The position numbers were made by a program, and so were the translations under genes. Shown here piece by piece: positions 5,493-44,163 of a DNA stretch of 64,000 nt. Position 1 is the first letter of the stretch. Each line of letters opens with the position of its first letter. Source of the stretch: Escherichia coli (GTDB taxonomy: Bacteria > Pseudomonadota > Gammaproteobacteria > Enterobacterales > Enterobacteriaceae); the NCBI RefSeq assembly GCF_016903815.1, contig NZ_CP069973.1; one strand, written 5' to 3'. The notes under the pieces were generated by a model. It ran no database searches. It was not told the DNA's origin and was given only the letters and a program-made list of their open reading frames with translations.

Positions 5493-5612
5493 ATGCCTGG
5501 CAGTTCCCTACTCTCGCATGGGGAGACCCCACACTACCATCGGCGCTACGGCGTTTCACTTCTGAGTTCGGCATGGGGTCAGGTGGGACCACCGCGCTAA
5601 GGCCGCCAGGCA
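5493..5612 (-). rRNA. rrfG: 5S ribosomal RNA
   Basis: 120-nt reverse-complement match to the enterobacterial 5S rRNA sequence; operon identity (rrnG) inferred from kgtP/clpB synteny. Confidence 0.95.
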
Positions 5613-5704
5613 AATTCTGTTTCATCAGACCGCTTCTGCGTTCTGATTTAATCTGTATCAGGCTGAAAATCTTCTCTCATCCGCCAAAACATCTTCGGCG
5701 TTGT

Positions 5705-8609
<2,905 letters not shown>

Positions 8610-8802
8610 TCACAACCCGAAGATGTTTCTTTCGATTCATCATCGTGTTGCGAAAATTTGAGAGACTCACGAACAACTTTCGTTGTTCAGTGTTTCAATT
8701 TTCAGCTTGATCCAGATTTTTAAAGAGCAAATATCTCAAACGTCACCCGAAGATGAGTTTTGAGATATTAAGGCAGGTGACTTTCACTCACAAACCAGCA
8801 AG

Positions 8803-8878
8803 TGGCGTCCCCTAGGGGATTCGAACCCCTGTTACCGCCGTGAAAGGGCGGTGTCCTGGGCCTCTAGACGAAGGGGAC
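8803..8878 (-). tRNA. gltW: tRNA-Glu (UUC) in 16S-23S spacer
   Basis: Reverse complement of GTCCCCTTCGTCTAGAGGCCCAGGACACCGCCCTTTCACGGCGGTAACAGGGGTTCGAATCCCCTAGGGGACGCCA. Confidence 0.95.
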
Positions 8879-8963
8879 GTATCAGTCTGCTTCGCAAGAC
8901 GCCTTGCTTTTCACTTTCTATCAGACAATCTGTGTGAGCACTGCAAAGCACAGTTCTTTAAGG

Positions 8964-10505
<1,542 letters not shown>

Positions 10506-10947: not shown

Positions 10948-13521
10948 TTACTGGACGGCGACAATCCGGTCTTCATTAACTTCCAGGCGAATCACTTTAC
11001 CCGGAACCAATTCACCAGACAGTATTTGCTGTGCCAGCGGGTTTTCAATCTGCTGCTGAATTGCACGTTTCAGAGGACGTGCGCCATAGACCGGATCGTA
11101 ACCGTTCTCGCTCAGCAGTTTCAGCGCCTCGTCAGAAATGTGGATTTCATAACCACGTTCTTCCAGACGTTTATACAGACGTTTCAACTGAATCTGCGCA
11201 ATCGACGCAATGTGCTGTTCACCCAGCGGATGGAAGACCACCACTTCATCGATACGGTTAATGAATTCCGGACGGAAGTTATGGCTAACCACACCGAGCA
11301 CCAGCTCTTTCATGTGCGCATAATCCAGTTCACCGAAGCGTTCCTGAATCAGATCGGAACCGAGGTTAGAGGTCATAATGACGACCGTATTACGGAAGTC
11401 GACCGTTCTCCCCTGCCCGTCAGTCAGACGCCCATCATCCAGTACCTGCAACAGAATGTTGAAGACATCCGGATGCGCTTTTTCCACTTCATCCAGCAGG
11501 ATAACGGAATACGGACGACGACGCACAGCTTCGGTCAGGTAGCCACCTTCTTCATAACCAACATATCCCGGAGGCGCACCAACCAGACGAGACACCGAAT
11601 GTTTCTCCATAAACTCGGACATATCGATACGGACCATCGCCTCGTCGCTATCAAACATAAAGTTCGCCAGCGCCTTACAAAGCTCAGTTTTCCCCACACC
11701 CGTTGGGCCGAGGAACAGGAATGAACCAATCGGGCGATTTGGATCCGCCAGCCCCGCACGGCTACGACGAATAGCGTTAGATACCGCATCAACCGCTTCG
11801 TTCTGACCAATAACGCGATGGTGCAGCTCTTGCTCCATACGCAGCAGTTTTTCGCGCTCGCTTTCCATCATGCGAGAAACCGGAATCCCCGTCCAACGCG
11901 CCAGCACTTCAGCAATTTCGGCGTCGGTCACTTTATTACGCAACAGACGCATAGTTTTGCCTTCGAGCTGCGTTGCGGCTTCCAGTTGCTTTTCCAGTTC
12001 CGGGATTTTGCCGTATTGCAGTTCAGACATCCGCGCCAGGTCACCCACACGGCGAGCCTGTTCAATAGCGATTTTCGCCTGTTCCAGTTCCGCTTTAATG
12101 GTCTGTGTACCAGAAAGCGATGCTTTCTCTGCTTTCCACTCTTCTTCTAACTCGGAGTACTGACGTTCTTTGTCGCTCAGTTCTTCGTTGAGCATATCCA
12201 GGCGTTTTTTACTGGCTTCATCAGACTCTTTCATTAACGCCTGTTGTTCCAGTTTGAGCTGGATAATACGACGATCGAGTCGGTCGAGTTCTTCTGGTTT
12301 TGAGTCAATCTGCATACGAATGCTGGATGCTGCTTCATCGATCAGGTCGATGGCTTTATCCGGCAGCTGACGGTCAGCAATGTAGCGATGAGACAACGTC
12401 GCCGCTGCAACAATTGCCGGGTCAGTAATTTGCACATGGTGGTGCAGTTCGTAACGTTCTTTTAAGCCACGCAGAATAGCAATGGTGTCTTCAACAGAAG
12501 GCTCGGCAACAAACACTTTCTGGAAACGACGTTCCAGCGCAGCATCTTTTTCGATGTACTGGCGATATTCGTCAAGCGTCGTGGCACCTACGCAGTGCAA
12601 TTCACCACGCGCCAGCGCCGGTTTCAGCATGTTTCCGGCGTCCATTGCGCCATCGGCTTTACCCGCGCCGACCATGGTATGTAATTCGTCGATAAACAGG
12701 ATGACGTTGCCTTCCTGTTTGGCAAGATCGTTAAGCACGCCTTTTAAACGTTCTTCAAACTCACCGCGATATTTCGCCCCAGCCACCAGCGCGCCCATAT
12801 CCAGCGCCAGTACGCGGCGGCCTTTCAACCCTTCCGGCACTTCGCCGTTGATAATACGCTGCGCCAGACCTTCAACGATGGCAGTTTTACCGACGCCGGG
12901 TTCACCAATCAGTACTGGGTTATTTTTAGTACGACGTTGCAGCACCTGAATGGTACGGCGAATTTCTTCATCACGACCAATCACCGGATCGAGTTTGCCC
13001 TGTTCGGCTCGTTCGGTAAGGTCGATGGTATATTTTTTCAAAGCCTGACGTTGGTCTTCAGCACCTTGATCGTTCACGCTTTCACCTCCACGCATTTGTT
13101 CAATCGCTTGAGTAATGTTGGCGGTGGTCGCCCCTGCTGCTTTCAGGATGTCGGCCAGCGTGCCGCGAGACTCAAGTGCCGCCAGAACGAACAGTTCTGA
13201 CGAGATAAAGTTATCACCACGTTTTTGCGCCAGCTTGTCGCAAAGATTAAGAACGCGCACCAGATCCTGTGATGGCTGGACATCACCACCAGTACCTTCA
13301 ACCTGCGGTAAACGATTTAATGCCTGATTGATATCTGTGCGCAACTGGCCAGCATTTATGCCAGCGGATGTTAATAAAGGACTAACCGAACCCCCTTCCT
13401 GATTCAGCAGGGCGCTCATTAAATGAAGTGGTTCGATAAATTGGTTGTCGTGCCCGAGTGCAAGTGATTGGGCATCGGCAAGAGCAAGCTGGAATTTATT
13501 AGTAAGACGATCCAGACGCAT
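10948..13521 (-). CDS. clpB: ATP-dependent disaggregase chaperone ClpB
   Basis: 857-aa product starting [11 protein letters not shown]; two AAA+ modules with Walker A motifs ([16 protein letters not shown]). Confidence 0.95.
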
Positions 13522-13560
13522 AACTCCTCCCATAACGGATCAAAGTTGCTACTGGAGATT

Positions 13561-13588
13561 AAATGAGGTCATCCCTCAATTATTCAAG
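13561..13588 (-). promoter_or_regulatory. candidate sigma-32 heat-shock promoter of clpB
   Basis: Minus strand CTTGAA, 14 nt, CCTCATTT upstream of clpB start. Confidence 0.5.
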
Positions 13589-13650
13589 GTTATTGACCAG
13601 ATTAATGTGAAAAGAAAATCACGCGTACCGGATCGTCTTGATTCTTTAGG

Positions 13651-14382
13651 TTATATCAGCCAAATGAAACTTGCCATACGACCAGTGGTCTTGTCGCGAC
13701 GATAAGAGAAGAAAGTCTCATTTTCCGTATATGTACAACGGTTGCCGCCGAAAATTTGTTCGACACCGACGTTCGCCAGACGCTGCCGGGCAAGGAGATA
13801 AATATCCGCCAGATACTTATCACCATGCTGAATGAAAGCTGTACTCGCTTTGGCGTCTACTGCCATAAACGCCTCGCGAACCTCCGCCCCCACTTCAAAC
13901 GCGCGTGGACCAATTGCCGGCCCTAACCAGGCGAGAATATTTTCCGGATTATCAGCAAAACAGGAAACCGTCTCTTCCAGCACGCCTGCGCACAGTCCAC
14001 GCCAGCCAGCATGAGCGGCGGCGACTTCCGTTCCCGCTCGATTGCAAAACAGCACGGGGAGGCAGTCGGCAGTCATCACTGCGCAAACCGTGCCCGGCGT
14101 GTTGCTATAAGAGGCATCTGCTCGTTTTGAGGCATAAGGTTCGCCAGTAAGCTTAAGCACATCTTTGCCGTGTACCTGCTCAAGCCAGACCGGTTTTGAA
14201 GGCAAATGGCCCGCAGCAAAAAGTCGCTTGCGATTCTCCTCAACGTGATCCGGGTTATCGCCACAATGGGCACCGAGGTTGAGCGAGTCATACGGGGGCA
14301 AGCTCACGCCGCCGATACGAGTGGAGCTACAGGCCGCAACACCTTTTGGCAGCGGCCACTGCGGGACAATCAGCTTACTCAT
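13651..14382 (-). CDS. yfiH: purine nucleoside phosphorylase / laccase-domain protein YfiH (PgeF)
   Basis: 243-aa ORF, recognised YfiH-family sequence, overlaps rluD stop as in K-12. Confidence 0.85.
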   Translation of the reverse strand: MSKLIVPQWPLPKGVAACSSTRIGGVSLPPYDSLNLGAHCGDNPDHVEENRKRLFAAGHLPSKPVWLEQVHGKDVLKLTGEPYASKRADASYSNTPGTVCAVMTADCLPVLFCNRAGTEVAAAHAGWRGLCAGVLEETVSCFADNPENILAWLGPAIGPRAFEVGAEVREAFMAVDAKASTAFIQHGDKYLADIYLLARQRLANVGVEQIFGGNRCTYTENETFFSYRRDKTTGRMASFIWLI

Positions 14383-15359
14383 AACCAGTCCACTTCATCC
14401 TTATGCTCTTCGAAATCGGCGCGCATCACCTCAATCAGCTCCACCATATCTTGTGGAATAGGCGCATGCCATTCCATTTCGATGCCGGAGATCGGGTGAT
14501 AAAGACGCAGCATGGTTGCATGAAGCGCCTGGCGGTCAAACTTACGCAGCGTGGAGATAAACGCTTCCGAAGCACCTTTTGGCGGACGCGGACGGCCACC
14601 ATAAACCGGATCGCCCACCAGCGGATGAGTGATATGGGCCATATGCACGCGGATCTGGTGCGTACGTCCGGTTTCCAGACGCAACCGCAGACGCGTGTGC
14701 ACACGGAAGTGTTCCATGATGCGATAGTGAGTGACCGCCGGTTTACCCATCGGATGCACCGCCATGTGAGTACGTTTGGTCGGGTGGCGGCTGATTGGTT
14801 CATCTACTGTACCGCCAGCGGTCATATGACCAATTGCCACCGCTTCATACTCACGAGTAATTTCACGCCGTTGCAAAGATTCGACTAAACGCGTCTGAGC
14901 CGGAACGGTTTTTGCCACAACCATCAGGCCGGTGGTGTCTTTATCCAGACGATGGACGATGCCCGCACGCGGTACATCGGCAATGGGCGGATAGTAATGA
15001 AGCAACGCATTCAATACCGTACCATCCGGGTTACCCGCGCCAGGATGTACCACCAGGTCGCGTGGTTTATTAATGACGATGATATCTTCATCTTCATAGA
15101 CGATATCCAGCGGGATATCCTGCGGTTCAAAACGCGCTTCTTCTTCAATCTCAGCGTTGATGGCCACCTGCTCGCCACCCAATACTTTTTCTTTCGGCTT
15201 ATCACAAACTTTGCCGTTAACCAGCACGCGCTGGTCGAGGATCCATTCTTTTATTCGCGAACGTGAATAATCCGGGAACATTTCGGCCAAAGCCTGATCT
15301 AAGCGTTGACCGAGTTGGTTTTCGGACACCGTTGCAGTGAGCTGTACTCGTTGTGCCAT
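14379..15359 (-). CDS. rluD: 23S rRNA pseudouridine synthase D
   Basis: 326-aa product with S4 domain and RluA-family catalytic core (HRLDKDTTGLM). Confidence 0.9.
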   Translation of the reverse strand: MAQRVQLTATVSENQLGQRLDQALAEMFPDYSRSRIKEWILDQRVLVNGKVCDKPKEKVLGGEQVAINAEIEEEARFEPQDIPLDIVYEDEDIIVINKPRDLVVHPGAGNPDGTVLNALLHYYPPIADVPRAGIVHRLDKDTTGLMVVAKTVPAQTRLVESLQRREITREYEAVAIGHMTAGGTVDEPISRHPTKRTHMAVHPMGKPAVTHYRIMEHFRVHTRLRLRLETGRTHQIRVHMAHITHPLVGDPVYGGRPRPPKGASEAFISTLRKFDRQALHATMLRLYHPISGIEMEWHAPIPQDMVELIEVMRADFEEHKDEVDWL

Positions 15360-15493
15360 ATATACTGCTTCTTCGTTTATCGTTGGGGTTTTACGGCTTT
15401 GCCGTTTAATATAGTGTGCTATTGTAGCTGGTCTTAACCGGGAGCAGGAACAGAGAATCTCCCGTATTACATTTTGAGGAAAGTCAAAACGTC

Positions 15494-16231
15494 ATGACGC
15501 GCATGAAATATCTGGTGGCAGCCGCCACACTAAGCCTGTTTTTGGCGGGTTGCTCGGGGTCAAAGGAAGAAGTACCTGATAATCCGCCAAATGAAATTTA
15601 CGCGACTGCACAACAAAAGCTGCAGGACGGTAACTGGAGACAGGCAATAACGCAACTGGAAGCGTTAGATAATCGCTATCCGTTTGGTCCATATTCGCAG
15701 CAGGTGCAGCTGGATCTCATCTACGCCTACTATAAAAACGCCGATTTGCCGTTAGCGCAGGCTGCCATCGATCGTTTTATTCGCCTTAACCCGACCCATC
15801 CGAATATCGATTATGTCATGTACATGCGTGGCCTGACCAATATGGCGCTGGATGACAGTGCGCTGCAAGGGTTCTTTGGCGTTGACCGTAGCGATCGCGA
15901 TCCTCAACATGCTCGAGCTGCGTTTAGTGACTTTTCCAAACTGGTGCGCGGCTATCCGAACAGTCAGTACACCACCGATGCCACCAAACGTCTGGTATTC
16001 CTGAAAGATCGTCTGGCGAAATATGAATACTCCGTGGCCAAGTACTATACAGAACGTGGCGCATGGGTTGCCGTCGTTAACCGCGTAGAAGGCATGTTGC
16101 GCGACTACCCGGATACCCAGGCTACGCGTGATGCGCTGCCGCTAATGGAAAATGCATACCGTCAGATGCAGATGAATGCGCAAGCTGAAAAAGTAGCGAA
16201 AATCATCGCCGCAAACAGCAGCAATACATAA
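15494..16231 (+). CDS. bamD: outer membrane protein assembly factor BamD (lipoprotein, TPR)
   Basis: 245-aa product with lipobox LAGCSG; recognised BamD/YfiO sequence. Confidence 0.9.
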
Positions 16232-16246
16232 CAGAAATCTGAAACA

Positions 16247-16276
16247 CAAAACGGCAGCCCTTGAGCTGCCGTTTTT
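16247..16276 (+). terminator. rho-independent terminator after bamD
   Basis: Hairpin ACGGCAGC…GCTGCCGT followed by T7. Confidence 0.55.
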
Positions 16277-16447
16277 TTATTCTGTTAGTTGTGAAACTGA
16301 AGCGATTTAGTCACTATCGATCTCATCAAATATGGCTCGCTTTGAGATATTCCTCAAGTAAAAAAACACCTCTTCCTGCGATTTCTCACAAAAAAACTTC
16401 GTTGACAAAAAGTGACAAAATTATGAGATTTCCATCACACATTTTGA

Positions 16448-16843
<396 letters not shown>

Positions 16844-16866
16844 TCCTTTATATTGAGTGTATCGCC

Positions 16867-16890
16867 AACGCGCCTTCGGGCGCGTTTTTT
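16867..16890 (+). terminator. rho-independent terminator after raiA
   Basis: AACGCGCC-TTCG-GGCGCGTT followed by T6. Confidence 0.65.
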
Positions 16891-16946
16891 GTTGACAGCG
16901 TGAAAACAGTACGGGTACTGTACTGAAGTCACTTAAGGAAACAAAC

Positions 16947-16994
16947 ATGAAACACACACCGTTTTTCTTCGCATTCTTTTTTACCTTCCCCTGA
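16947..16994 (+). CDS. pheL: pheA leader peptide (Phe-rich, MKHTPFFFAFFFTFP)
   Basis: 15-codon ORF with 7 Phe codons followed by terminator hairpin; classic attenuation layout. Confidence 0.85.
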   Translation: MKHTPFFFAFFFTFP

Positions 16995-17040
16995 ATGGGA
17001 GGCGTTTCGTCGTGTGAAACAGAATGCGAAGACGAACAAT

Positions 17041-17070
17041 AAGGCCTCCCAAATCGGGGGGCCTTTTTTA
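17041..17070 (+). terminator. pheA attenuator terminator
   Basis: GC-rich hairpin (AGGCCTCCC…GGGGGGCCT) followed by T6 between pheL and pheA. Confidence 0.7.
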
Positions 17071-17092
17071 TTGATAACAAAAAGGCAACACT

Positions 17093-41585: not shown

Positions 41586-42015
41586 CGCCGTGCCGCAGCT
41601 CCGAAATAATCCCGATATGCTGCGCCTTTTTGCCGACAACGGCCATACCGATTCCCGACTGGCGAGCTCGCTGTCGTTTGAAAAGGTGTACGTGCTTAAC
41701 GTGGTGGTGACCGACTTCACCGGTGACCTTGATTTGATATTCGTGCCGGTGCAGGCGTGGCTGCGTGAACATCAGCCGGACATTATGACCACCGACGACG
41801 GGCGGGAAAAAGGATTCACCTGGATTATTGATATCAATAACGACGATTCGCTCGATATCAGTATCAGCCTGAGGCTCACCGAGCGCACGCTCGTCAAAGA
41901 GGTCGACGGCGCGCTGCACGTCAGCTATGCCCCTGAGCAGCCACTGCCTGAGCCGGTGACGCGCCCGGTCGAGCTGTACGTTAACGGCGAACTGGTGAGT
42001 AAGTGGGATGAGTGA
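41539..42015 (+). CDS. tail completion protein R
   Basis: 158-aa product, recognised P2 R-like sequence. Confidence 0.85.
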   Translation: MNSMQKHKSLRKALINAVPQLRNNPDMLRLFADNGHTDSRLASSLSFEKVYVLNVVVTDFTGDLDLIFVPVQAWLREHQPDIMTTDDGREKGFTWIIDINNDDSLDISISLRLTERTLVKEVDGALHVSYAPEQPLPEPVTRPVELYVNGELVSKWDE

Positions 42016-42463
42016 ATTAACCGCGCTGCAGGAACGCCTTGCCGGTCTGATTGCCAGCCTGTCACCGGCGGCACGTCGGCAAATGGCGGTTGAGGTTGCG
42101 AAAAAGCTGCGTACCAGTCAGCAACAGCGTATCAAGCGCCAGCAGGCACCCGACGGCACCCCGTATGCGGCACGAAAGCGCCAGCCGGTGCGGAGCAAGA
42201 AAGGTCGGATTAAACGTGAAATGTTCGCCAAACTGCGCACCAGTCGCTTTATGAAAGCCAAAGGCAGCGACAGTGCGGCGGTGGTGGAGTTTACCGGCAA
42301 GGTGCAGCGCATGGCGCGGGTGCATCAGTACGGCCTAAAAGACCGGCCAAACCGCAACAGCCGGGATGTGCAGTACGAGGCGCGACCGTTGCTCGGATAC
42401 TCTTCATCAGACTTACAAAAAGTTGAGAGTTTAATTATGGATGCTTTATGTCAACGCCATTGA
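42008..42463 (+). CDS. tail completion protein S
   Basis: 151-aa product, position and size. Confidence 0.85.
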   Translation: MSELTALQERLAGLIASLSPAARRQMAVEVAKKLRTSQQQRIKRQQAPDGTPYAARKRQPVRSKKGRIKREMFAKLRTSRFMKAKGSDSAAVVEFTGKVQRMARVHQYGLKDRPNRNSRDVQYEARPLLGYSSSDLQKVESLIMDALCQRH

Positions 42464-42519
42464 CTTTGGATTCGCTGAGAATTATTATATAACTCAGCGA
42501 TAGAGGTGGACTGGTGTCT

Positions 42520-42563
42520 AGGTGGGCGTGCCCACTGAGTTGGGTTCGATTCCCTAACCTCGT
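42520..42563 (+). other. tRNA 3'-end-like fragment (T-arm-like GGGTTCGATTCCC), not a complete tRNA
   Basis: T-loop consensus TTCGATT with flanking G/C stem; upstream part cannot be folded into a cloverleaf. Confidence 0.3.
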
Positions 42564-43390
42564 ATTATTCCTCTCGATATTTTTATTGCTGGGTTTTCCT
42601 TTCTTATTTCATTTTTAATTTGCTCATCACAAATTAAATAATCTATGTTTTTTGCTTTAACAAGTTCTTTAACGCTAATGTTAATTGAATTTAATAGATT
42701 TGCATTCCGCATGTTAGCCCCTTCATAAGTAACGGATTTAAAATCACATCCTTTTAATATGCAGCTTTTCATTTCGCTATCTGTAAAATACCCCCCTTCA
42801 AAACTGCAGTTTTCGAAAGTGACATTTTGAAAACATGTATTAAATGCCTTAATATTTCTTAGCTTGCAGTTTTTGAATTTAACACTCTTAACTCTATTGC
42901 CTGTAATATTTAGAGCTTGAATTGTGCAATTATCGAAAGAACAATCTCTAATGTATGATTCGCTCATATTCAAGCCGGTTAAGTCAGCGTCTTTAAAATG
43001 TAAATATTTGATAGTGGACATTTTATCAAGTTCAATCCTTGGAACTTGAATGTTATATATTCCTTTAGCATTTAACTGACGTATGATTTTTATCTTCATA
43101 ATATTCAGTTCTGCAGAAGAATGCTTTGCCAGATTTTCAAGATCTTCAATTAGTTCGTGAATAGCATCTTTATTTTGCCTTTTATTTTCAAAATAGTAAA
43201 GAATCACACCCAAAACAAGAAAGTCTAAAATTGAAGAATTTGCATTAACAAGAAAATTCTCCATGAATTTTGAGTTGTAGTTATCATTATAAACAGACAA
43301 CCCTACTATAAGCCCGGAGTATAAAAAAAAGATACCTATAATATATTTCATATTGCTTATTGTACGCCTAAAAGATGAAGTTCTTTTCAT
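42554..43390 (-). CDS. membrane-anchored pentapeptide-repeat protein (accessory/moron)
   Basis: Very A+T-rich ORF; start chosen at MKRTSSF (AGGT 5 nt upstream); two N-terminal hydrophobic segments, then tandem 5-residue repeats (…DADLTGLNMSESYIRDCSFDNCTIQALNITGN…). Confidence 0.7.
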   Translation of the reverse strand: MKRTSSFRRTISNMKYIIGIFFLYSGLIVGLSVYNDNYNSKFMENFLVNANSSILDFLVLGVILYYFENKRQNKDAIHELIEDLENLAKHSSAELNIMKIKIIRQLNAKGIYNIQVPRIELDKMSTIKYLHFKDADLTGLNMSESYIRDCSFDNCTIQALNITGNRVKSVKFKNCKLRNIKAFNTCFQNVTFENCSFEGGYFTDSEMKSCILKGCDFKSVTYEGANMRNANLLNSINISVKELVKAKNIDYLICDEQIKNEIRKENPAIKISRGIIRG

Positions 43391-43462
43391 TACTACCTGC
43401 CATATGTTTTGTGTGATTTTCGAATGAGTCAACACTCAAATGATACATGAATGCACACCGAA

Positions 43463-43480
43463 TTGTGTAGAAGAGCATAC
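43463..43480 (+). promoter_or_regulatory. candidate Ogr-dependent late promoter element for V (TGT-N12-ACA)
   Basis: TGTGTAGAAGAGCATACA about 50 bp upstream of V start. Confidence 0.45.
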
Positions 43481-43527
43481 AGCTGAATCGTTTTGCTCTT
43501 GGCTTTAACAATCGGCATTCTTTGTTC

Positions 43528-44163
43528 ATGAACACATTAAACACCATTCAAGAGTTAGCACGTGCCATTCGCAACCTCATCCGCTCAGGCGTGGTGACTG
43601 AGGTCGATACTGTGCAGGGGCTGTGCCGCGTACAAAGCGGCGGGATCCAGACTACATGGCTGAACTGGCTGACCACCCGCGCCGGTCGTTCGCGGACGTG
43701 GTGGGCTCCCTCGGTCGGTGAGCAGGTTCTGCTGCTGGCAATCGGTGGCGAGCTTGATACCGCTTTCGTGCTGCCGGGTATTTTCTCCGACGATAACCCC
43801 GCCCCGTCTGCCTCGGCGGATGCGTGGCATGTGGCTTTCCCTGATGGTGCGGTCATTGAGTACGAGCCCGAAACCGGCGCGCTGACGGTCAGCGGCATAA
43901 AAACGGCCGACGTGACGGCATCGGAGTCCATCACCGCAACCGTACCGCTGGTACTGGTGAAAGCCTCGACCAGTATCACCCTCGACACCCCGGAGGTGAT
44001 TTGCACCAATAAGCTAACGACGGCGACGCTTGAGGTGCAGAAAGGCGGCAAGATGAGCGGCAATATCGAACATACCGGCGGGTCACTGTCGTCTAATGGC
44101 AAGGTACTCCACACCCATAAACACCCGGGCGACAGCGGCGGGCAAACGGGGGCACCGTTATGA
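43528..44163 (+). CDS. baseplate spike/assembly protein V
   Basis: 211-aa product from the ATG at MNTLNTIQELARA; recognised P2 V-like sequence. Confidence 0.85.
   Translation: MNTLNTIQELARAIRNLIRSGVVTEVDTVQGLCRVQSGGIQTTWLNWLTTRAGRSRTWWAPSVGEQVLLLAIGGELDTAFVLPGIFSDDNPAPSASADAWHVAFPDGAVIEYEPETGALTVSGIKTADVTASESITATVPLVLVKASTSITLDTPEVICTNKLTTATLEVQKGGKMSGNIEHTGGSLSSNGKVLHTHKHPGDSGGQTGAPL

Follow-up and report, generated by a model that had tools for sequence, protein, structure and literature searches.

Cassettes that combine a protein gene with a gene for a small RNA in the accessory slots of phages have been a productive source of toxin-antitoxin and anti-phage mechanisms. In the Hailong system, the nucleotidyltransferase HalB makes oligo-dA, and HalA, a membrane channel that contains pentapeptide repeats, is an effector gated by nucleic acid (PMC13276650; 10.64898/2026.02.27.708500), while control by a nucleic acid has been proposed also for the SLATT effector in DRT10 (PMC13276650). 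The present analysis concerns a stretch of 64,000 nucleotides (nt) from the chromosome of Escherichia coli (assembly GCF_016903815.1, contig NZ_CP069973.1), called the window in what follows, which hosts a 186-like peduovirus prophage, and in particular a short element that lies just after the stop codon of the prophage gene S and directly 3' of, and on the opposite strand from, a gene for a membrane pentapeptide-repeat protein (PRP). In an earlier note on this DNA, two hairpins and a match to the T-arm of a transfer RNA (tRNA) had been seen here, and they had been read as the possible scar of a site-specific integration or, alternatively, as a structured RNA. From the fold of the element, its covariation, its strand preference, the geometry of its promoter and its linkage to the PRP gene, we infer that it is transcribed as a small RNA and that this RNA and the protein are partners. 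On balance, we think it probable that the element is a small RNA gene, not a scar, and that its RNA is the cognate partner of the membrane PRP, most likely as its antidote or gate.

The element, the parts of which are listed in Table 1, is predicted to fold into a closed, reduced cloverleaf of ~60 nt, in which an acceptor-like stem encloses a miniature D-arm, a central hairpin (the second, short hairpin of the earlier note) and a T-arm. The match to a T-arm had been correctly seen: the T-arm-like motif GGGTTCGATTCCC occupies positions 42542-42554, and the T-loop motif GGTTCGANTCC occurs in two copies in the window, one here and the other in the genuine tRNA-Glu gene (8803-8878), when only 0.09 copies per window are expected by chance and two or more matches were obtained in 0 of 100 shuffles. 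Consider now alignment A3, which contains 16 distinct enterobacterial variants of the element. When the four-helix cloverleaf is imposed on A3, 89.7% of the cells are paired, and this fraction falls to 34-53% when the pairing partners are slid by one to three columns. Six pairs are altered on both sides, and none of 500 shuffles matched the observed pairing or covariation score. Three of the stems, i.e., the acceptor-like stem, the central hairpin and the T-stem, are recovered independently when RNAalifold is applied to the same alignment.

The central stem has been rebuilt repeatedly, as GTGGG/CCCAC, GTGAG/CTCAC, GTGGA/TCCAC, AAGGAGAGC/GTTCTCCTT, AAGGAAGAT/ATCTTTCTT and ACGTTA/TAACGT, and across the variants the central hairpin has 5-9 base pairs (bp) and a loop of 4-8 nt, the sequence of which is not conserved. 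In the acceptor-like stem, which is 4-5 bp long, the third pair changes from G-C to A-U or G.U and the fifth from U-A to C-G, and some of the T-stems have a mismatch or a bulge. Invariant in the element are the leader AUA, the D-loop GG, GGUUCGAUUCC and the 3' end C-U/C-CG. The T-loop GGTTCGATTCC is, together with the D-loop GG, invariant across A3, and reads TTCAATT in the copies L101 and L102; the D-loop as a whole is CTGG in most variants and ATGG in three. When compared with the copy in the window, the elements are 68-95% identical and the adjacent open reading frames (ORFs) 63-81%. The stop codon of the PRP gene and its reading frame across the element vary, so that the protein ends in RG, in RGQGIEPNSVGNPT or in NEVRESNPTQ, and it follows that the conservation of the element is not protein-coding.

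By the usual tools, no tRNA is called here. ARAGORN finds the tRNA-Glu gene as the only one in the window, and nothing at this locus or in 19 related loci. Rfam 15 at gathering thresholds, a scan which the earlier note had proposed as a way to detect a complete tRNA or another known family, has no family in the interval, and in a permissive scan the best match is tRNA-Sec with 14.1 bits (E = 4.8), against a threshold of 47. The claim that the sequence cannot be folded into a complete tRNA stands in so far as no canonical tRNA is called, and falls in so far as a mere 3' fragment was meant, since the reduced cloverleaf is closed. The covariance model R1, which was built from the enterobacterial copies in A3 only, has a single match in the window (42497-42567, 87.7 bits), and it aligns a genuine tRNA-Gly from end to end with 25 bits. 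A parent tRNA for the element was sought and none was found, and in the literature no tRNA-like RNA tied to pentapeptide proteins was found described. The alternative of a structured RNA is strongly supported by the comparison, in view of the conservation of the element, the covariation in its stems and a conserved promoter of its own.

Two copies of the element have additions. In L018 (IMGVR_UViG_2627853930_000003, 2725-2765), three tandem copies of GATTCCCTAACCTC stand at the 3' edge of the element. This unit comprises half of the T-loop, the 3' strand of the T-stem and the 3' strand of the acceptor, and its repeats give alternative 3' strands and lengthen the region of the PRP C-terminus; they could have arisen by slippage or have a functional cause. 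In L091 (Acinetobacter pittii pTCM-2, ~1973-2054), an extra ~20 nt, GTATTGCAATTTCGTATTG, in which GTATTG is repeated, lies between the central hairpin and the T-arm in the manner of a variable arm.

Upstream of the cloverleaf, a sigma-70-type promoter is predicted, with an RNA start at ~42494-42496. Among 21 variants, 19 have TTGAC(T/A/G) at -35, a distance of 16-17 nt and an nAnnnT hexamer, and the other two, on Psychrobacter plasmids, have TTGTAA at -35; in these 21, the distance from the end of the promoter layout to the first base of the stem is 7-19 nt, and no more than 7-15 nt if a single variant is set aside. For L064 and L088, the automated promoter scan chose a different, weaker site. 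The layout is kept in phage, island and plasmid contexts, and in contexts of the P2 type the TGA stop of S is embedded in the -35 hexamer. Genuine promoter-tRNA genes were retrieved with the same search pattern, and the layout is therefore that of a tRNA gene. The first, 7-bp hairpin described in the earlier note, CGCTGAG…CTCAGCG directly after the stop of S, is indeed there, and covers the promoter spacer, the -10 hexamer and the predicted start site. Because its stem is kept in near-identical copies only (L007, L008) and is missing from L024, L055, L058, L059 and others, from relatives with 80% identity onward, this hairpin appears to be lineage-specific and to lie outside the conserved element. 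Left of the promoter, upstream of TTGACTTT, the copies L059, L063, L071 and L087, which are not of the P2 type, have a common block of ~65 nt (…TTGCTCATATCACGTTGCGTTAATCAATGAGGAACAGGC.ATTTGGGGGAGATCA) at which their similarity ends. No conserved ORF was found in this block, which may be the left end of a mobile unit or a regulatory region.

The linkage between the element and the PRP gene has been followed through phages, plasmids and chromosomes. A block identical to that of the window is carried by phage vB_EcoM-613R3, by 13 of 5426 complete E. coli genomes and by four IMG/VR contigs, and a second variant by four further E. coli genomes. The PRP family has 28 clusters with 50-99% identity, found in Klebsiella, Edwardsiella, Citrobacter, Yersinia, Enterobacter, Raoultella and Salmonella, and in all of the ~20 enterobacterial homologues that were fetched, spanning the same range of identity, the element adjoins the 3' end of the ORF and is encoded on the other strand. 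The commonest locus is the S/V slot of P2-like phages. Other loci are a SRAP-[cassette]-umuCD-dinI region (L014/15, L059-61), a chromosomal site in Yersinia (L063), a site between umuDC and an Abi_C gene (L066) and one beside a P4-type primase (L087). On small plasmids of Psychrobacter and Acinetobacter, distant homologues with 25-30% identity over 81-89% of the length have a recognisable element in the same place, one of them beside RelE/ParE and a restriction enzyme, and two homologues on viral contigs (41% and 34% identity) carry the element too. When R1 is applied to distant copies at their expected positions, it gives 29, 21, 14, 13 and 10 bits, where only the top two are individually significant (E = 6e-6 and 1.5e-3) and the others have E = 0.25-3.4.

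Searches in the opposite direction, from the RNA, gave the following. R1 has no match in the cassette-free phages 186, Midge, P2 and ST147phi7.1; the presence of the same sequence in phages without any insert, which the earlier note had named as evidence against its reading, was thus not observed. Beside a Paenibacillus PRP that is 27% identical, the element was not found. Among 74 further IMG/VR candidates, the sole strong R1 match is in a contig that bears a PRP homologue. When viral contigs were scanned with a broad D-loop/T-loop pattern, most of the matches were real tRNAs, and filtering by R1 left one known member. A scan of metagenomes gave one new variant (L071) and, in addition, genuine promoter-tRNA genes. 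Species-representative genomes scanned with GACTGGTGTC..GGTTCGANTCC had 20 matches, none of them enterobacterial, and the enterobacterial form of the element was in no representative. In the phages, plasmids and chromosomal islands that were inspected, the RNA element was never found without the PRP gene. Element and PRP gene are strictly linked at the inspected loci, in mobile elements of two orders. This suggests that the RNA gene and the PRP gene make up one cassette, which moves as a unit between accessory-gene slots in P2-like phages, further prophage regions, a locus of the P4 type and small gammaproteobacterial plasmids.

The PRP has 278 amino acids (aa) when read from the annotated ATG (43390), and the frame is open to a GTG at 43435, which would give 293 aa; the choice of start codon is uncertain at several loci, that of the window included. 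The TAG stop codon (42554-42556) lies within the 3' strand of the T-stem, and the gene is convergent with the RNA element. The Pfam matches are PF13599 (Pentapeptide_4), PF00805 (Pentapeptide) and PF13576 (Pentapeptide_3), with 60.4, 38.5 and 36 bits against cut-offs of 38, 20.2 and 27. In an AlphaFold2 model with a predicted local distance difference test score (pLDDT) of 81, the N-terminal part is helical and includes two hydrophobic helices (~30-49 and ~62-83); after a further, long helix comes a right-handed beta-helix at 141-250, and a short helix closes the chain. The hydrophobic helices have positive residues both on their N-terminal side and on the side of the PRP domain, which would from this be cytoplasmic. 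Foldseek and PDB searches return generic PRPs only (MfpA, AlbG, Qnr). The PADLOC profile RTasSLATT has a weak match within residues 4-107 (E = 6e-5 for residues 4-84, and 3.7e-4), and in a Pfam scan of the protein the SLATT profile was not matched. The family has short (265-293 aa) and long (~325-340 aa) forms, where the long form adds an N-terminal helix of ~50 aa (…YFEVLNSDYKYAVNAL…). When 1.84 billion representatives were searched, the top 150 matches included at least 34 relatives of full length, each with a single domain and 250-307 aa. Ten relatives were looked up; seven carry the name of an organism (Yersinia, Serratia, Enterobacter, Salmonella, Klebsiella, Acinetobacter and Pseudomonas), and for all named entries the annotation goes no further than pentapeptide-repeat or hypothetical protein.

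Table 1. Positions in the window of the RNA element, its parts and the features around it.
Feature	Position	Strand	Basis or remark
tRNA-like small RNA (predicted)	42500..42562	+	alignment A3, RNAalifold, covariance model R1
Invariant leader AUA	42500-42502	+	
Acceptor-like stem, 5 bp, GAGGT/ACCTC	42503-42507 / 42557-42561	+	
Mini D-arm GAC-UGGU-GUC, 3 bp, loop UGGU	42509-42511 / 42516-42518	+	
Central (second) hairpin GTGGG/CCCAC, loop CGTG	42522-42526 / 42531-42535	+	
T-arm, loop UUCGAUU at 42545-42551	42540-42544 / 42552-42556	+	
Invariant unpaired G after acceptor-like stem	42562	+	
Predicted sigma-70-type promoter, TTGACT (42460-42465)-17-TATTAT (42483-42488)	42460..42488	+	10/12 matches, best in 42300-43600
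First hairpin, CGCTGAG (42473-42479) / CTCAGCG (42493-42499), 13-nt loop	42473..42499	+	fold, 8 pairs
PRP membrane protein gene	42554..43390	-	ORF, annotation, Pfam
PRP promoter-like site TACACA-18-TATCAT	43440..43469	-	consensus scan, 9/12 matches
Tail-completion gene S (186 O homologue)	42008..42463	+	ORF list, ON470592 (identical phage) annotation, alignments
S stop codon TGA	42461-42463	+	inside -35 hexamer of RNA promoter
Low-GC foreign block	42397..43510	.	GC drop; identity loss and regain versus Midge and 186

In the prophage, the cassette is part of a foreign block with ~30% guanine plus cytosine (GC), at which the GC fraction drops from ~0.6 to ~0.3 and which replaces the short S-V spacer of 186-like phages. 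The block contains a recoded tail of S, the RNA gene, the PRP gene and the region upstream of gene V, which starts at ~43522/43528. In alignments with Midge and 186, identity is lost at ~42397 and regained at ~43510-43565. The left breakpoint is then inside S, 22 codons before the stop and ~105 nt upstream of the element, and the right breakpoint near or inside the start of V. Both flanks are 90-96% identical in the closest phages (Midge, RCIP0057, Yersinia and Erwinia phages, 186), all of which lack the insert, and in the closest phages without it the S-V spacer has only ~68 nt. The earlier note had proposed that alignment with relatives lacking the insert might place the element at an insertion boundary, and this is not what the alignments give. 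Breakpoints within S and at the start of V indicate homologous exchange between peduoviruses, as opposed to site-specific insertion at a tRNA-like sequence.

The tail of S, i.e., its last 22 codons (42397-42463), has low GC and is homologous to, and diverged from, the tails in 186 and Midge (YSSSDLQKVESLIMDALCQRH, versus FTRDDEQMIEDVIISHLGK in 186). It is two codons longer than these, which places the TGA within the RNA promoter's -35 hexamer. Related S tails, ending xH/Y-TGA, are found in other peduoviruses that carry the cassette, and S tail and cassette appear to have co-evolved. At the other end of the foreign block, upstream of V, a TGT-N12-ACA dyad (43464-43481) overlaps the promoter-like site of the PRP gene; its shape is that of the activator sites of P2-type Ogr/B, and the late promoter of V may have arrived together with the cassette. 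In the conserved coding sequence of S, ~190 nt past the PRP stop on the strand of the PRP gene, a terminator-like hairpin with a T-run (CCGGCTGTTGCGGTTTGGCCGG TCTTTT) occupies 42343-42364 of the minus strand, and could end the PRP transcript or be there by chance. The chromosome upstream of the prophage is ordinary (5495-10505 and 13502-17071), with a full rRNA operon, the tRNA-Glu gene on the minus strand, StyR-44, RyfD and the pheL leader, all of them Rfam calls at gathering thresholds.

To see how such a cassette might work, consider the following scheme. The sigma-70 promoter (42460-42488) would start transcription a few bases before the reduced cloverleaf (42503-42562, plus strand). The RNA would keep those parts of a tRNA from which the elbow and the acceptor/T helix are built, and since the anticodon arm has been exchanged for a hairpin free of sequence demands, such an RNA would be unable to decode. 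It would instead be the antidote or gate that silences a potentially membrane-damaging effector or limits its expression. The tRNA shape would lead to processing or stabilisation by the tRNA machinery of the host, and might in addition be a bait, so that loss or alteration of the RNA, by phage attack or by loss of a plasmid, would release the effector. In analogy with the DNA-gated HalA of Hailong, the logic would be that of a toxin-antitoxin system or of abortive infection. An antidote or gate is favoured because slots for accessory or defence genes, and small plasmids, are where the cassette resides, because the protein has the look of a membrane effector, and because effectors gated by nucleic acid are known; Abi_C, RelE/ParE, a restriction enzyme and a P4-type primase are among the neighbours of the cassette. 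In a more specific version, which we hold tentatively and place on the unlikely side, the tRNA mimic would hold the membrane effector closed, and loss, cleavage or sequestration of the mimic would open the effector and arrest the cell. Phage enzymes that act on tRNA, host shut-off and plasmid loss could then be the triggers.

Several observations weigh against a small RNA that acts as partner of the PRP. The shuffle statistics given above overstate the significance of the fold, as the sequences are related by descent, and the asymmetry between G.U and A.C pairs, from which the strand is judged below, is modest. The promoter, the ends of the RNA and the plus-strand transcript are predictions from the sequence, and an intrinsic terminator, sought 3' of the element, was not found. 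The short acceptor-like stem and the defects in T-stems make recognition by RNase P or by the CCA-adding enzyme uncertain. For duplexes between the RNA and the 5' part of the PRP mRNA, the mean energy is -34.5 kcal/mol in cognate and -35.3 kcal/mol in non-cognate combinations, i.e., there is no signal of a specific complementarity. PADLOC gives no significant system match for the PRP, which belongs to a PHROG family of unknown function. Finally, PRP domains are better known as mimics of DNA than as binders of RNA.

A serious rival, which we judge unlikely and which is compatible with an antidote, is pure cis-antisense action: the plus-strand transcript would run into the coding region of the PRP gene and repress it by pairing or by interference, with the tRNA-like part as a 5' handle. 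The convergent geometry, the overlap at the stop codon and the lack of a terminator after the element all fit with this, and type I toxin-antitoxin pairs that overlap at their 3' ends, such as txpA/RatA and bsrG/SR4, work in this manner. However, the invariance of the T-loop and the D-loop, together with the covarying stems, exceeds what a handle needs, and the protein is far above the size of a type I toxin.

Alternatively, the element could act from the minus strand, as a terminator, stabiliser or processing signal in the 3' untranslated region of the PRP mRNA, and the plus strand would then be irrelevant. The element begins at the stop of the ORF, its helices are strand-symmetric, and the minus-strand fold of 42464-42563 is more unusual than that of the plus strand (z = -3.86 versus -2.16). 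We hold this alternative to be improbable. Read in the plus sense, the model-based alignment has 15 G.U cells and 4 A.C cells, which would favour the plus strand. Intermediates such as GUGGG/CUCAC in L071 and the U.G pair in the T-stem of L024, L055 and L058 are paired in the plus sense only, and only in this sense are the T-loop UUCGAUU and the D-loop GG canonical. The promoter that is conserved is on the plus strand, and the minus strand lacks a U-tract.

That the element is a decaying pseudo-tRNA, i.e., a former phage tRNA gene with its promoter, carried along without function, would account for a promoter and a cloverleaf laid out as in real tRNA genes, and for tools that make no tRNA call. 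We find it quite improbable: stem changes are compensatory, and the T-loop, the D-loop GG and the promoter geometry are kept in two orders while the protein diverges to 25-50% identity; the element is also better conserved than the coding sequence beside it. Still less credit can be given to a free-standing tRNA mimic that serves the mobile element, for instance as decoy for tRNA-targeting nucleases, with a merely positional link to the PRP gene. Protection from anticodon nucleases can indeed come from tRNAs of phages and from tRNA-like RNAs (e.g., PARIS, T5 tRNA-Lys), and the features of the elbow have been kept here, but the anticodon loop, which is the usual target of such nucleases, is replaced by variable loops of 4-8 nt, and the RNA was never found without the PRP gene. 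The integration scar, i.e., the 3' remnant (attachment site, att) of a tRNA at which the cargo entered, draws on tRNA 3' ends being common targets of integrases, on the reality of the T-arm match and on the three tandem copies of GATTCCCTAACCTC in L018, and is hardly credible: the boundaries (~42397 and ~43510) are inside S and at the start of V, no matching direct repeat of the element was found at the far end of the insert, within the flanks that were inspected, which measure 2.5-3 kb at most loci and 1.2-1.5 kb at some, a gene for an integrase is neither annotated nor called, and the 5' acceptor strand and the D-arm are present in a whole mini-cloverleaf, with covarying stems, which has the same place relative to the ORF on plasmids.

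If a small RNA gene is indeed what the element is, apparent junk or scar sequence becomes a candidate for a new RNA family, that of a tRNA-derived small RNA with its own promoter which is absent from Rfam 15. At the loci examined, a widespread and unstudied group of membrane PRPs on mobile elements of Gammaproteobacteria is never without this RNA, and PRP morons in P2-like prophages should, as a caution for annotation, be seen as two-gene units. Were the RNA also the partner of the protein, a tRNA mimic in this role would tie the cassette to the tRNA machinery of the host, and if the mimic held the effector closed, the cassette would be an RNA-gated counterpart of the DNA-gated Hailong, i.e., a new kind of two-component toxin-antitoxin or anti-phage system. 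The cassette is small (~1.1 kb) and hence directly testable.

How, then, does the cassette compare with systems already described? With tRNA genes and with tRNA-like domains, such as the tRNA-like domain of transfer-messenger RNA (tmRNA), mascRNA and YrlA, the element shares a T-loop UUCGAUU closed by G-C (of the general form UUCRANY, closed by G53-C61), a D-loop GG, an acceptor-like stem that joins the 5' and 3' ends and a sigma-70 promoter a few bases upstream. It differs from a canonical tRNA in that its acceptor has 4-5 bp instead of 7, that its D-arm has 3 bp and a 4-nt loop, that a central loop of 4-8 nt stands where the 7-nt anticodon loop would be, that CCA is not encoded after the unpaired G, and that neither ARAGORN nor Rfam 15 makes a call. 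In contrast to tmRNA it has no tag-coding region, and in contrast to YrlA no Ro/Rsr or rtcB context. As a place, the locus resembles the slot of the P2 moron orf30, which is an S-V insertion slot with one reverse-oriented accessory gene of low GC, yet the cargo regions of P2 and ST147phi7.1 have no R1 match.

As a pair of genes, the cassette resembles toxin-antitoxin systems of types III and I (ToxIN; txpA/RatA) in that protein and small RNA are encoded by adjacent or overlapping genes on phages and plasmids and have defence or addiction genes as neighbours. It is unlike type III in that the RNA gene is single-copy and convergent, without tandem repeats in the window, and in that a PRP takes the place of an endoribonuclease toxin. 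The overlap at the 3' ends fits the geometry of type I, where the toxin is a peptide of less than 60 aa, whereas the PRP has 278-339 aa. With DRT10 and other reverse-transcriptase-associated SLATT systems there is a weak N-terminal likeness to a two-helix membrane domain; the SLATT match is marginal, there is no reverse transcriptase gene, and the RNA is tRNA-like rather than a template. With Hailong, finally, the cassette has in common a membrane effector with pentapeptide repeats, located in accessory or defence hotspots of P4/P2 type and accompanied by a second gene as the source of a small nucleic acid. In NCBIfam, the PRP domain matches HalA best, with 44.9 bits in the repeat region only, against a cut-off of 250 for NF051894, and the HalA chain 9nyi in PDB has 34 bits, below the generic PRPs MfpA and AlbG; homology with HalA was rejected, the similarity being that of PRPs in general. 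Among the called neighbours at all loci, no match to a nucleotidyltransferase domain was recorded, and the cassette thus differs from Hailong in having no gene of the HalB type. The order of domains is reversed, with the membrane helices of the cassette protein at the N-terminus, and where the partner in Hailong is DNA made by an enzyme, the partner here would be a tRNA-like RNA encoded in the genome.

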